The translations under genes and the position numbers were made by a program. From Escherichia phage 520873, in sequence record NC_049344.1: DNA of 37,583 nucleotides. One strand, 5' to 3'. Under the pieces are notes generated by a model. The model ran no database searches and was not told where the DNA came from. It was given only the letters and a program-made list of their open reading frames with translations. Shown here one piece after another: positions 686-37,583 of the stretch (its first letter is position 1; the number at the start of each line of letters is the position of its first letter).

Positions 686-811
686 ACGCTTTTCCTGTGG
701 ATCTCAACTCGCCAGCATCTATCTTACATGCCGGTCCGTATCAGAGATACTTTTTGAGTGGCTTTGCCGGTGATTAAAAATCAAGGAGGGTGTAACGACA
801 AGTTGCAGCAC

Positions 812-836
812 AAAAAAACCACCCGAAGGTGGTTTC
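812..836 (-). terminator. Rho-independent terminator downstream of the tRNA-Leu remnant
   Basis: On the minus strand GAAACCACC-ttcg-GGTGGTTT followed by a T7 run (plus strand A7 at 813-819). Confidence 0.5.
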
Positions 837-878
837 ACGACACTGCTTATTGCTTTGATTTTATTCTTATCTTTCCCA

Positions 879-929
879 TGGTACCCGGAGCGGACTTGAA
901 CCCGCACAGCGCGAACGCCGAGGGATTTT
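879..929 (-). other. attL core: 3' ~50 nt of a leuZ-type tRNA-Leu (anticodon loop 3' side, T-arm, acceptor CCA); 5' half absent
   Basis: rc reads TTTAAAATCCCTCGGCGTTCGCGCTGTGCGGGTTCAAGTCCGCTCCGGGTACCA, matching the 3' half of E. coli tRNA-Leu(TAA); upstream sequence is unrelated AT-rich phage DNA. One C short in the T-stem relative to the canonical gene. Confidence 0.6.
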
Positions 930-1038
930 AAAAACTATCAACCACAATTTATAAATCATAACCTTATGATTTTATTAACTTTGCAAATAGCTCTATACGA
1001 TGCCATTTGAATCTATTGTCACTTTTTATCGCCACTTT

Positions 1039-30581: not shown

Positions 30582-31070
30582 GCCAGCTAACCACTTCGCC
30601 GGGCGTCATCATGAAGATTTCGGCGGGCGACCAGTTAAAAATGGCGGCAATATCCGCCACCAGATCTTCGATGTGCTCAAAGCACACCAGGGTGATTACG
30701 CTGCCGTCTCCTGCACGCTCTTCGCGCCAGAGTCTGGCTCGCTCATAAAATTTACAGCCACAGCGCACAACTGAATAAAATCGCGTGACGACATTTTTTT
30801 AATCATCACTTCATCCAGTCGTGGCGAGGTCACGCGAGGCAACAGCGTGAACATGGTATCCGCTTTCAGATTCAGCACATCAGACAGCGACAGACCACGC
30901 AGGGATCCAGCCTGCTCAATAGCCCCGGTGATCTCCACATACGTGATTTTTTCGCCACCACGCTCAATTGGTCGGGTCAGTTTTACGCCACGTTCGACAG
31001 CCATATCCTCAACTGCCGTCACATTATCCGCCACGGTGTTATTCCGGGTTTCAGTATCGATGTCTTTCAT
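30532..31070 (-). CDS. Tail assembly chaperone E+E' (-1 frameshift product)
   Basis: A second ORF in the -1 frame overlaps the 3' part of E; on the mRNA an A7 run (plus-strand T7 at 30794-30800) sits at the frame junction and the -1 frame opens immediately after it. Confidence 0.5.
30696..31070 (-). CDS. E: Tail assembly chaperone gpE
   Basis: ORF in the gpE position upstream of T. Confidence 0.7.
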   Translation of the reverse strand: MKDIDTETRNNTVADNVTAVEDMAVERGVKLTRPIERGGEKITYVEITGAIEQAGSLRGLSLSDVLNLKADTMFTLLPRVTSPRLDEVMIKKMSSRDFIQLCAVAVNFMSEPDSGAKSVQETAA

Positions 31071-31125
31071 CTGTTGTCTCCTTTTCAGTCAGAGGCGACG
31101 CACTGCGCCGCCAGCATATTACTTA

Positions 31126-31638
31126 TCAGCCAAGCCCAAGCGCGGAACGGATGCGATCGGGCACAATGTCCTTGCCGTCCTTCCGGTAAATGAAGTTCAG
31201 CAGGTCAATCTCCCACAACGGGCGATCGTTAACACTCAGCTTGTAGTAGGTGTTTTTAATGGCGTAAGTGTGTGATGTGGCTTCGCCCTGTTTGGCTTCC
31301 CCCATATCAATTTCCGTCACACGTCCGCGCATTTCGACTTCATACAGGTCGCTTTCTGCATCGGTGTAGTATTCACCCGCAAAACGCAGCAGCGTGCCGT
31401 CAATCGTGCCGCCATACTTAAGGAACAGCTCACGAACTGCGCCCCCCATGACAAAGCTCGCATCAAGCGCGGAGTCGTCCAGACCGAGATCAATACTTAC
31501 CGCACCCATCATGCCACCACCCCGGTAGCTGTCGGTTTTGCGCGTCAGCTTAGGCAGAGTGACGGACGTCACCTTACCCACTTCGTTTTCACCATCCACA
31601 AACAGCGTAAAAAAGCGAAGATGTTTTGGTACAGCCAT
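31126..31638 (-). CDS. FII: Tail tube protein gpFII
   Basis: 170-aa ORF, P2 gpFII size and position. Confidence 0.85.
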   Translation of the reverse strand: MAVPKHLRFFTLFVDGENEVGKVTSVTLPKLTRKTDSYRGGGMMGAVSIDLGLDDSALDASFVMGGAVRELFLKYGGTIDGTLLRFAGEYYTDAESDLYEVEMRGRVTEIDMGEAKQGEATSHTYAIKNTYYKLSVNDRPLWEIDLLNFIYRKDGKDIVPDRIRSALGLG

Positions 31639-31858
31639 CAGACACCTCCCAGCACCGCAAATGCGGGACCAAAGAATTCATCAGTAAACGACTGGTAAAG
31701 CTCCATGTCTTCCAGTGGCGGAACGGGCGTATATTTGTAGCGAATACGCACGCGCCCCTGACGTAAATTCGTGGTGCCGTTATCCACCACGTCATACCAG
31801 CACGACGCCCCAATCAGTTTCCCGGCAGTAACCAGTGAATCCAGTTTTGCCCTGATGG

Positions 31859-33812
<1,954 letters not shown>

Positions 33813-34938
33813 TGATGGCACTGATAACATCTTTCACGTTCGCAGGCGTCAGTGGACTGTCGATGGTTTCAAACTGCGCTTCCGCAATTGAATCAGCCAG
33901 CACCTGTGCGGTTCGGGTATACACCTCAAAGATGTAGGCGTTCGTTTCCGGTGTGCGGTTGCCCCAGAAGCGGAACCCGTTGCGACGAATAATGGTCGTG
34001 ATTTCTTTGTTGTTGAGGCTGTTGGCATCACTGTCTTCGGCCTGCAACGACCAGAACACATGCCTGGACATCCCCAGCACATTTTTAACCGGAACGTTGG
34101 ACAGCGATTTGTGCCAGCCCTGCTCATGGTCAATGTACGCACGAAGGCCGCACGCATAGGCAGGCGCGGGGAACGTTTCGTTTTTGCCACTTTTCGGGTT
34201 GTAGGCGATGAAGTCCGGCCATAAGAGCATCACCTCACGTTCGTTGAATTTCTGGCGGTAGGTAATCGCCTCAGCCATCGTGTTACAGCCGTGACATGAG
34301 GCATACACAAACGCGCGCAGTTTACCCGCAATCACGCACAGGGATTTTGTTACCGCCTCCGTATCCAGCTCCGGCGCGGCCAGAATACGCGGACGGTATC
34401 CGATGCTTTCATCCTGCTCTGCAACAAGCAGCGCATACATCCCCGTATAGCTGCCGTCAGATTCAGAACCACCGATAACCAGTTGATCCTGCGTTTTTCC
34501 GTCTTCTTCTTTGTGTTCAGCCACGCGAACGACGATCACCTTTGTGCTCACCTGGTCTGCGATGGCCTTAAGCGCACGATAAAGCGTCCCCGTTGTTCCG
34601 CATTTTCCCAGCACGTCATTGACGCGGGTCAGCAGTGTGGGCTTGTTCAGCGGGAACAGCTCCGCATCCGCATCATCCGCCGTTGCCACGATACCGATAA
34701 CACTGGAATCAACATCATTAATCGCTGTTACCAGGTCGGTACTTTCCGTAACACGGGCACCATGAAAACGAGTTTCACTCATAGCTTCAGCCCCTTGTAT
34801 CCGTTAAATGATTCGGCAACAATCATCACCCACCACGCGCGTAATCTCACCCCTGCGCCGTTCTCCCGCCACGGCGACAACAAAAAGCAGTAACCCCCTC
34901 CGCACGCACATGCGACCATGCCGCACAGGGAGGGAAAG

Positions 34939-36036
34939 ATGACCGACACCACCATGCAATTGCTCAGTCAGAGCACAGACCCCGTGAAAATGCCGGATTT
35001 TGATATTCTCGCGGAGGGGAAAACGCTGTCCGGCGTGGCAGAGCGCCTGATGAGTCTGTCACTGACCGACAACCGGGGATTTGAAGCGGACCAGCTCACC
35101 ATCACGCTGGATGATGCGGATGGTCAGTTGCAGCTACCGCCACGGGGCGCGCGCCTGACGGTTCTCATTGGCTGGAAAGGAGAACCGCTGACAGAAAAAG
35201 GCACTTACATTGTTGATGAAATCGCTCACGAAGGTCCGCCGGACAGGCTGACTGTTTCAGCCAGAAGCGCAGATTTTCGGGATGAATTTAACGTTAAACG
35301 TGAAGTGTCCTGGCATGATGTGACCGTTGAGCGCGTGGTATCTGCTATCGCTCACCGGTACGGCCTGAAACCGCAAATCAGCGAAATGCTGATGGATATC
35401 GAAATCGACCACGCCGACCAGACCGAAGAAAGCGACATGTCCTTCCTTACGCGCATGGCGGAAATGCTGGCGCAATCACCACGGTAAAAAGCGGTAATCT
35501 GTTATTCATCATGCCAGGCGGTGGCGTGAACGCACAGGGAAAACCATTGCCATCGTTTGCCATCACACGCAGCAGCGGCGATCGCCATCAGTTTCGCATT
35601 GCTGACCGCGAGGCGTATACGGGTGTACGCGCCTACTGGCTTGATCTTAATTACGGGAAAAAGAAAAAGTCAGCGTGAAACGCCGCAAACCGAAAAAGGA
35701 GAAAAGCAGCAGCCGGGAAGGCGACTATATGGAAGGCGCGGAAGCAACGTGTTTGTGTTACGCAAGACTTATCAGAACGAGCAGGCAGCAAGACGTGCAG
35801 CGGCGGCAAAGTGGCAGCAGCTACAACGCGGAGCCGCAGCGTTCTCCATCACGCTGGCGCGTGGACGTGCAGAACTCTATCCCGAAATGCATGGCACGGT
35901 GACAGGCTTCAAAAGTGACATCGACAATCAGGACTGGATTATTGCAAAAGCCGAGCACACCATTGACAACAGCGGCTTTACCACTCAGCTTGAGCTTGAA
36001 GCAAAAATCCCGGAATGGATAGCAGAAACAGAGTAA
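34939..36036 (+). CDS. D: Tail protein gpD (late control gene D); three apparent single-base frameshifts
   Basis: Segments in three frames align in order to remembered P2 gpD (PDFDILAEG...TDNRGFEADQL...SARSADFR...; ...AITRSSGDRHQFRIADREAYTGV...; ...REGDYMEGAEA...; ...AKWQQLQRGAAAFSITLARGRAELYPE...). Breaks fall near 35465, 35670 and 35745, in short A runs where visible. Confidence 0.8.
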
Positions 36037-36230
36037 ACAACTTAGATGCATTAGCCCTGACATTTGTTAACGCGCCTACAGCAAGAATCATAACCAATCT
36101 GACAGCCTACCAAGTGTCAAAATCAGAAGTACCTTACATTAGAATATGTTAATTTGTAGCAAACAAATTTACACACAAATGATTACTGCTGAAATAGCGC
36201 CCATAAATGCCATGTCAGAGGATCCATGTT

Positions 36231-36605
36231 ATGAATATGCAACCAGCAGCCACAGTTGCTGCAGTCTGCCTTGCTGCATATTTTGCTTTACGAAATGAAC
36301 GTAAAAAGAAAGCACTTGAGATTAGAACAACTCAACTAGATCGAATATCTGAGCTAGTAAACCGAGCATCTACCAATTTGATGCAATATACAGGTAGCCT
36401 TGCCTCTATACTGGAAGCGCGCCAAAGAAGATTATCGACCGAACAAAAATTTGACATTAATGTAATTAGCAAATGGAAAGATTGCCTCGATGAGAGTGAG
36501 GTCTGGGCGATTGATATACAGCACTCAGAGCATGTCAGCACAGCCTGGAGTTTCATCGTGAAAAAGAATGGGCTGAATGGAAACAAATATTCCACCATTA
36601 CTTGA
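36231..36605 (+). CDS. Hypothetical membrane-anchored protein in the AT-rich D-ogr cargo region
   Basis: MNMQPAATVAAVCLAAYFALR... N-terminal TM helix; downstream frames stay open in shifted frames (36576..36711 and beyond). Confidence 0.4.
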   Translation: MNMQPAATVAAVCLAAYFALRNERKKKALEIRTTQLDRISELVNRASTNLMQYTGSLASILEARQRRLSTEQKFDINVISKWKDCLDESEVWAIDIQHSEHVSTAWSFIVKKNGLNGNKYSTIT

Positions 36606-37025
36606 TAAAATTGATCAATTCTTTCTCATATCTAAGCCAGGGCAACCTGTTACGTTTATAAATAGCCAAAACAAACAGCTGATGAACTACTTGATTTCTC
36701 AAGATATTTGAGAGCTCAAACAGCAGAAATTGAATCAGTACGTCGGCAGTTACTTCCCAAATGAGAAAGAATTCAGCGAGTTGACTAGCTTTAGACCTAT
36801 CACAATATTTAGCCTATTTAAATCAATAAAGAAAAATGTCATGCAATTTTTCTGTATCGGCGCTCTTAAAAATTGACGCTCTGTTGCAAGCAACCCCAGT
36901 GTTAAACTGGGGTTATTCTTGCTAAGAGACCTTTCTACGGCATCAGTAAACAAAGCGAACTATCAGTTGGAGTCTGAGTAAGTTCAGCCTAAACTAGCGA
37001 CAGTACTACGTTAAGGGAGGTCGCT

Positions 37026-37286
37026 ATGTTTCGTTGTCCGCTTTGTGGCGCATCTGCCCGTATCCGCACCAGTCGTTCGGAAAATGATTCAGATACCGTG
37101 CGGAAAAAATATTACCAGTGTAACAACCTGGAATGCGGCGTATGCTTCTCAACACTGGAGGCTTTCCATAAATTCACATCGAAACACGCCCCCGGCGTTC
37201 ACTCTTCAGAGGGCATCCCGTGGAATGAGCTGCCAGCTTCGCACAGGGGAAACAACCAAATGAGTTTGCCCTTACCTCAGAATTAA
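37026..37286 (+). CDS. ogr: Ogr/Delta-family zinc-finger late transcription activator
   Basis: MFRCPLCGASARIRTSR...YYQCNNLECGVCF matches the remembered P2 Ogr Cys pattern (MFHCPLC...ARTSR...HQCQNVNCSATF); RBS AAGGGAGG. Confidence 0.75.
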   Translation: MFRCPLCGASARIRTSRSENDSDTVRKKYYQCNNLECGVCFSTLEAFHKFTSKHAPGVHSSEGIPWNELPASHRGNNQMSLPLPQN

Positions 37287-37375
37287 CAGGCTGAATTGCC
37301 GGAGTAACAAAAAAGCGATAGATTACGCGCGGGTGCCTTTCGGCTGATGGCTGGAGGAATACCCGAAGGCCAGAT

Positions 37376-37558
37376 GTGGAAAGGCCCCGGAAAACATTTC
37401 TGTTTAACCGAGGCCCTGACCATCTAACCTTAGCAAGTGATAGGTTAGCGCCTCCCCAAAAAAGGAGCAAGCGCTATGTCGCAAAAATCGCTTATGGCCA
37501 TCACGTTCTGCGTGACGGTAATCCTCATCATCTGGATGCTGCACGGTTCGCTGTGTGA
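37376..37558 (+). CDS. Possible mok-like overlapping reading frame of a hok locus
   Basis: ORF overlapping the hok-like ORF in another frame, as in hok/mok/sok loci. Confidence 0.3.
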   Translation: MERPRKTFLFNRGPDHLTLASDRLAPPQKRSKRYVAKIAYGHHVLRDGNPHHLDAARFAV

Positions 37559-37583
37559 AATACGGATGAGCTTCTGGGGAGCG
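37476..37583 (+). CDS. Hok/Gef-family type I toxin (partial, runs off window)
   Basis: RBS AAGGAG; MSQKSLMAITFCVTVILIIWMLHGSLCEIR has the Hok TM helix and conserved SLCEIR motif. Confidence 0.5.
   Translation, partial: MSQKSLMAITFCVTVILIIWMLHGSLCEIRMSFWGA

Follow-up and report, generated by a model that had tools for sequence, protein, structure and literature searches.

A probable hok/sok-family toxin-antitoxin cassette at the right edge of the Escherichia phage 520873 sequence

The sequence record of Escherichia phage 520873 (NC_049344.1), whose whole stretch of 37,583 nucleotides was analysed here and is termed the window, breaks off within a short open reading frame that had been read, from the letters alone, as part of a hok-type type I toxin locus. 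The truncated frame raises the questions of whether a genuine toxin gene is present, whether it is accompanied by the RNA elements of a hok/sok system, and whether it belongs to the prophage or to the flanking chromosome. The best explanation, to which a probability of about 0.88 is assigned, is that three quarters of a hok/sok-family type I toxin-antitoxin cassette of approximately 420 nt, counted from its 5' end, lie at the right edge, the cassette being an accessory ("moron") gene located between ogr and attR of a P88-like prophage of the P2 family at leuZ. The partial hok-type locus is borne out by Pfam and PHROG matches and by a probable hok-mRNA leader. Moreover, the observation is more than a product of chance: of 5426 complete E. 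coli genomes, 1156 contain the same sequence together with ogr, the frame carrying a Hok/Gef annotation in each of the matches listed.

Bases beyond the window were taken from the genome of E. coli 510016 (NZ_CP025851.1), where the corresponding locus is designated L001 and whose identity to the final 684 nt of the window is 99.9%. The 3' quarter of hok, an fbi-like element and the terminator, the last expected about 220-255 nt beyond the window, lie outside the window and are deduced from NZ_CP025851.1. Over the last 6.7 kb (window 30900-37583 against L001 1-6685), the window displays 12 single-base deletions and 0 substitutions, a pattern which is that of homopolymer-type assembly errors. 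One of the 12 falls in the hok leader, where GGAGGG has become GGAGG at about 37355, while eight disrupt a low-GC gene of 217 aa (window 36231-36876) that the RefSeq genome carries intact. In view of this resemblance to assembly errors, the broken open reading frames of the window should not be taken as pseudogenes.

Prophage carrier and distribution of the cassette

The features of the window that define the carrier are the left attachment site and the gene preceding the cassette.

810..932, no strand assigned: attL, a 123-nt copy comprising the 3' 55 nt of tRNA-Leu (leuZ) and 69 nt downstream of it
37026..37286, plus strand: ogr/Delta late-gene activator (Pfam Ogr_Delta, 53.4 bits), the last conserved P2-family gene before the cassette

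The attL copy forms a direct repeat with L001 7662-7785, which extends over 124 columns at 99.2% identity with exact runs of 84 and 41 nt, and is flanked by yecA on its left and by the integrase on its right. An intact tRNA-Leu had been proposed as the marker of attR, and it was found where the attR repeat overlaps an intact leuZ (L001 7731-7817), about 1.1 kb beyond the window end; in the window itself, a complete tRNA was not detected by ARAGORN. At about 124 nt, the duplication at the att sites is of unusual length, and the leuZ terminator forms part of it. In RefSeq relatives, ogr is annotated as an ogr/Delta-like zinc finger family protein.

The same ogr-hok junction was encountered at ihfA in O55:H7 CB9615, at serS in E41-1, and at leuZ with a 79%-identical allele, and the cassette is also carried by the phages P88, P884B11, Chuche, 500465-2 and Shae_phiSM at 93-97% identity. 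The position of hok between the att repeats, the occurrence of the junction at three chromosomal sites and the presence of the cassette in deposited phage genomes together assign the locus to the prophage, a matter that the original prediction had considered not determinable and that data from outside the window settle in favour of an att-bounded element. The opposite assignment, to the flanking chromosome, has only the position of the locus at the window edge in its favour and is set against a locus that moves with ogr from site to site, which leaves it a practically negligible probability.

The cassette occurs in 1755 of 5426 complete E. coli genomes, in up to nine places per genome. Related copies were located after lom in Stx and lambdoid phages (the copy adjoining lom in an Stx2 lambdoid phage is 82% identical), on an IncI1 plasmid and in islands adjoining an L31 paralogue, and further ones in Salmonella, Citrobacter and E. 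albertii. The profile search with alignment comprised 7 genomic loci and 80 near-identical viral loci, and the diversity described below was drawn from BLAST hits. E. coli-type hok cassettes, 74-98% alike at the protein level, were also met in a Planococcaceae MAG (L005), Vagococcus sp. (L006) and Xanthomonas pisi (L009), where they most likely stem from enterobacterial DNA contaminating those assemblies.

Several further observations concern the right part of the prophage. Between the intact cassette and attR, a degenerate second hok was recognized at L001 7424-7560 (approximately 0.85-1.0 kb past the window end), which consists of a leader 76% identical to that of the intact cassette followed by an internally deleted hok, and which probably marks an older right end of a leuZ-integrating prophage. 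A small open reading frame of unannotated function lies between the two hok copies on the minus strand (L001 6910-7191). IS100 (istA of 340 codons and istB of 260 codons) interrupts the tail-sheath gene at 31945-33746, likewise in NZ_CP025851.1, so that the prophage is defective for tail synthesis. The low-GC segment 36000-36900 (0.36-0.40 against about 0.53 in its flanks), situated between a gpD-like gene and ogr and containing a hypothetical gene, is absent or different in relatives (L099 and the P88 region) and looks like a second moron. Upstream of ogr, a GC-rich inverted repeat at 36888-36930 (AACCCCAGT...ACTGGGGTT) has the appearance of a terminator of the preceding gene. Weak Rfam matches, namely rdlD at 36888-36930 (E 1.8) and Thr_leader and others on the L001 terminator, were dismissed as chance matches to terminator hairpins.

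The toxin gene and its messenger

The coding sequence and the elements proposed for its mRNA are arranged on the plus strand in the following order.

37296..37324, plus strand: predicted hok promoter, with -35 TTGCCG (37296-37301), a 17-nt spacer and -10 TAGATT (37319-37324)
37331..37475, plus strand: hok mRNA leader, with hairpins at 37331-37388, 37389-37409 and 37410-37454 and then the SD sequence AAGGAG
37331..37345, plus strand: tac-like 5' element GGGUGCCUUUCGGCU, predicted to pair with the fbi-like GGCCGAAGUGGCACCC beyond the window
37476..37583, plus strand: hok coding sequence up to the window end, 108 of its 141 nt and 36 of its 46 codons

Reading from ATG 37476 up to the window end yields the 36-aa peptide MSQKSLMAITFCVTVILIIWMLHGSLCEIRMSFWGA, which matches the Pfam family HOK_GEF (PF01848) with 21.3 bits and an E value of 2e-4, slightly below the 22-bit cutoff. 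The full 46-aa protein, completed from L001, scores 30.3 bits against the same cutoff of 22 and covers profile positions 5-42 of 42; PHROG 251 ("MokW-like host killing") matches it with 82.5 bits (E 3e-23), residues 1-46 aligning with profile positions 2-49 of 50. The Hok/Gef-like frame had been described as encoding a transmembrane helix and an SLCEIR motif, with a start implied at about 37477, and both traits hold from ATG 37476: residues 6-22 are hydrophobic with a mean Kyte-Doolittle value of 2.73, and SLCEIR occupies residues 25-30. The SD sequence AAGGAG lies at 37462-37467, 8 nt before the ATG. The original prediction had also staked its reading on a Hok C-terminal domain, and the extended frame possesses one, ending in ...AEFAAFLQCKQ and a stop after 46 aa in total.

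Compared with R1 Hok, the full protein shows 39% identity over 31 core residues, SLCEIR and AAF included. The residues C12, T14, L26, C27, E28 and E37 correspond to positions conserved in >80% of 1264 Hok peptides (10.1101/2025.08.07.668861), and all of the Hok-wide conserved residues given in that survey (M1, C-x-T, LCE and E) are found in the 46-aa protein. In the hok frame, dN/dS amounts to 0.22-0.39 against distant alleles, and the 46-aa Hok is under purifying selection. RefSeq/PGAP names the protein a Hok/Gef family protein (WP_000078911.1), a label borne by the frame in 20 of 20 among the matches listed from complete E. coli genomes, and a sequence search of the PDB gave no match. Assignment as a HokA orthologue was rejected, as the NCBIfam equivalog NF007290 scores 35.1 bits, far under its cutoff of 89 bits. 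Judged by its sequence, the edge frame represents a genuine and intact toxin gene, truncated where the window ends, and neither a fragment nor a pseudogene.

The transcript of this gene would start at about 37331, which is also the start of the match to the Rfam model RF01794 ("sok"). The hexamers of the predicted hok promoter are kept among relatives, and homology between cassettes of different carriers begins at about this point. A scan for promoters and terminators reported no promoter on either strand, both proposed promoters lying just under its thresholds (the hok promoter agrees with the consensus at 8/12, where the scan threshold is 9/12), so that both rest on conservation and on homology to R1.

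A structured region upstream of hok had been anticipated and was recovered: the leader 37331-37478 folds as three hairpins with z = -3.3 relative to shuffles. The Rfam search that had been suggested placed model positions 1-157 of RF01794 on 37331-37464 of the plus strand (E 3.9e-9) with 46.9 bits, under the gathering score of 59, and 10 of 12 scanned relatives match likewise at 37.5-53.5 bits, all below that score. A locus with a Hok identical to R1 Hok served as the control, and in it the model matched the sense strand of hok over the stretch between the mRNA 5' end and the hok AUG with 87.2 bits, which implies that RF01794 describes the hok leader and that a plus-strand match is what is expected of a hok/sok locus. 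By its leader, the cassette is best placed in a diverged subfamily not collected by the Rfam threshold.

The minimum free energy fold of the full 411-nt mRNA (from L001) has z = -8.3 and pairs the 5' nt 1-15 with nt 336-351, the latter belonging to the 3' UTR, where the fbi-like GGCCGAAGUGGCACCC lies at L001 6767-6782, some 82-97 nt beyond the window. A second long-range helix is predicted between leader nt 99-112 and 3' nt 320-333. When the structure, itself derived from one of these sequences, was tested across 43 distinct sequences, the tac/fbi-like helix was paired in 93.6% of cells, and the two long-range helices were jointly paired in 90.6%, versus at most 53% with a slid register. Five compensated pairs were counted across both helices, four of them in the second. 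The tac/fbi-like helix is nearly invariant (1 of 15 pairs changes on both sides and 3 never vary) and gains weak covariation support; as a predicted helix, it is backed by conservation rather than by covariation. The label ucb/dcb was considered for the second helix and abandoned, the R1 definitions (PMC9841398) not fitting, and it is retained as a predicted helix only.

The candidate antisense RNA and the mok-like frame

On the minus strand, the leader would be opposed by an antisense transcript with its own promoter.

37442..37470, minus strand: predicted Sok promoter, with -35 TTGCTC (37470-37465), a 17-nt spacer and -10 TAACCT (37447-37442)
37372..37435, minus strand: predicted Sok-like RNA of about 60-65 nt, with inferred ends

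An antisense sok-like RNA had been expected around 37376-37440 of this strand, and the conserved promoter and hairpin predict one at about 37435-37372, in agreement with that expectation. The hexamers TTGCTC and TAACCT are invariant or at least 90% conserved among 35 distinct sequences and occupy the same model positions as the R1-type TTGCGC-N17-TATCCT with an equal 17-nt spacing. The -10 hexamer agrees with TATAAT at only 3/6 and is absent from the scan output. The predicted RNA would begin with a single-stranded 5' tail, continue into a long hairpin with arms 37417-37408 and 37390-37381, and finish in a UUUCC tail that provides only UUU before CC, with a folding energy of -34.3 kcal/mol and z = -5.9. 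The hairpin is kept in all allele types, its basal stem being conserved and its apical stems differing yet staying paired; moreover, two conserved G·U pairs exist on the antisense strand only, the sense strand presenting C·A mismatches at these places. The cassette is accordingly predicted to carry an unannotated antisense RNA gene.

Variation in the leader is greatest at 37414-37436, the stretch complementary to the predicted single-stranded 5' tail of Sok, and in the apical stem of the Sok hairpin, and at least four allele types were distinguished at 37414-37436 and the homologous columns. Such variability is the pattern that would be expected if these segments set the specificity of Sok/hok pairing between coexisting copies.

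Two further frames of the leader deserve consideration in connection with mok.

37376..37558, plus strand: mok-like overlapping frame with a GTG start and 60 codons, open in this allele only
37374..37427, plus strand: short upstream ORF with a conserved ATG, 17 codons in the window

The mok-like frame that had been noted over hok does exist, open from GTG 37376 to 37558, and is not conserved. In 48 of 70 distinct related cassettes, no ORF starting with ATG, GTG or TTG runs from upstream of the hok SD across the hok start, and in P88, the closest phage, both alternative frames are closed by stops at -46 and -35. The substitution ratio of the mok-like frame is 0.96-2.4, that is, free of constraint, and its product has no Pfam or PHROG match. 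No start codon occupies the position homologous to the R1 mok start, after GAGG 37410-37413; CUG or AUC following this GAGG was discarded as a mok start on account of an immediate TAA. An ATG at -130 in L001-type alleles was likewise rejected, being out of frame via the 1-nt deletion of the window and devoid of an SD. The ATG at 37374 is present in 68 of the 70 distinct cassettes, where it opens ORFs of 1-79 codons. Taken by these comparisons, the mok-like frame is probably an allele-specific open frame and not a gene.

Related systems, competing readings and a proposed mechanism

Among the known systems, hok/sok (parB) of plasmid R1 shares with the present cassette a small Hok/Gef membrane toxin bearing SLCEIR, a leader that matches RF01794, here under the gathering score, with the same three-hairpin layout, an antisense promoter, predicted here, at the homologous position with 17-nt spacing, and an mRNA closed from 5' to 3', by tac/fbi in R1 and by prediction here. 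In contrast with R1, the toxin comprises 46 aa instead of 52 aa, the leader is about 28 nt shorter (2 nt take the place of 26 model positions before the hok SD), a conserved mok frame is missing, the carrier is a phage instead of a plasmid, and the system is known from sequence alone. Much closer is the Hok gene of P88 (gp52, YP_009113095.1) and of other Xuanwuvirus/P2-family prophages, which represents the same cassette, 95% identical in DNA in the case of P88, and likewise follows the tail genes close to the right end of the prophage; the differences are allelic only and concentrated in the Sok-target part of the leader, and the mok-like frame of P88 is closed.

[quoted passage not shown] Unlike the present toxin, HokW is a 51-aa, HokC/D-like protein with the N-terminus MKQQKAM... 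(from the primers in PMC8621323), and its carrier is a lambdoid phage; hokW-sokW and the Stx-phage copy resembling the present cassette (82%, beside lom) are different loci. Finally, hokA/sokA of E. coli K-12 supplies the best NCBIfam match, the HokA equivalog, and has the ...AAFL.CK C-terminus in common, whereas the score far under the equivalog cutoff excludes orthology. In a broader context, the presence of hok in prophages is amply documented: 14 Hok/Gef genes have been described in O157 Sakai (PMC2887945), and 6290 Hok homologues in IMG/VR, fourfold enriched in prophages (10.1101/2025.08.07.668861).

Three other readings of the cassette were weighed. If it worked as a canonical hok/mok/sok system, mok would be translated from GTG 37376 behind the SD-like GAAGG at 37365-37369, hok would be coupled to it, and Sok would block mok as in R1. 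This reading draws on the requirement for mok translation in R1 (PMC9841398), on the open frame overlapping the hok start and on a Sok-like RNA that would cover the GTG; it conflicts with the 48 of 70 distinct cassettes lacking an ORF across the hok start, the 95%-identical P88 among them, with the missing start codon at the R1-homologous position, and with an unconstrained frame whose product matches no family, and it is therefore considered quite unlikely. Still less probable, with only a slight chance, is a decayed and silent relic devoid of a working toxin or antitoxin, comparable to several chromosomal hok loci of E. coli K-12. Degeneration of some chromosomal hok loci is documented (PMC2887945), a second copy about 0.8 kb downstream (L001 7424-7560) is clearly degenerate, and the Rfam score is sub-threshold; against this stand an intact frame with all Hok-conserved residues under purifying selection, the joint conservation of promoters, leader, closing helix and terminator, which stay together as one unit across carriers and in 1755 of 5426 E. 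coli genomes, and a cassette free of any IS element or internal deletion.

The remaining reading accepts the same parts and assigns them a different role, in which Hok would build up after Sok loss at prophage induction and aid lysis and phage release, as for hokW-sokW of Sp5, instead of serving maintenance or exclusion. In Sp5, sokW is depleted by mitomycin C and HokW builds up in dependence on RecA, and loss of the locus halves the phage yield (PMC8621323). An 82%-identical copy of the cassette beside lom in Stx2 lambdoid phages adds to this case, and yet HokW is a different, 51-aa Hok, and the same cassette resides on an IncI1 plasmid and in islands, where a lysis aid makes no sense. P2-type prophages, moreover, are classically not SOS-inducible. 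A lysis role is hence regarded as unlikely, though with a real chance of about one in a handful.

For the preferred reading, a prophage-borne hok/sok-family cassette, a mechanism can be proposed by analogy with the R1 paradigm, established by the Gerdes laboratory and reviewed in PMC9841398. The full-length hok mRNA would be stable but closed and untranslatable, until slow 3' trimming takes off the fbi-like element and allows the leader to refold. As long as the prophage is present, the short-lived Sok-like RNA (about 37435 to 37372, minus strand) would pair with the leader and lead to RNase III decay. Once Sok synthesis stops, as might happen when the element is lost, when an infecting phage shuts off transcription or when the prophage is induced, Hok would be made and the inner membrane permeabilised. 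Given that the 46-aa subfamily has no conserved mok frame, translational coupling of hok to mok is probably not part of the control, and the block of Hok synthesis by Sok is likely to proceed via decay or refolding.

A more far-reaching proposal, advanced tentatively and at somewhat less than even odds, is that the 46-aa HokA-like, phage-spread subfamily represents a naturally mok-less form of hok/sok. Hok would be translated from its own strong SD after mRNA refolding, the Sok-like RNA would silence it solely through decay or refolding set off by duplex formation, no block of a leader ORF being involved, and the hypervariable segment 37414-37436 would prevent cross-talk between the up to nine copies that coexist in a genome. 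The newest survey of Hok left mok unanalysed, regarding its calling as ambiguous (10.1101/2025.08.07.668861).

The locus is an ordinary member of its family whose protein is already annotated, while annotation is missing for the predicted antisense RNA gene and the mRNA elements. Its importance is small beyond the correct annotation of an intact, prophage-owned toxin gene together with a predicted, hitherto unannotated gene for an antisense RNA. The single aspect of more general use is the apparent absence of mok from a widespread phage-borne Hok subfamily, whereas the paradigm holds mok essential, its translation being required for that of hok in R1 (PMC9841398), and this absence raises the question of whether Sok control can work without translational coupling.
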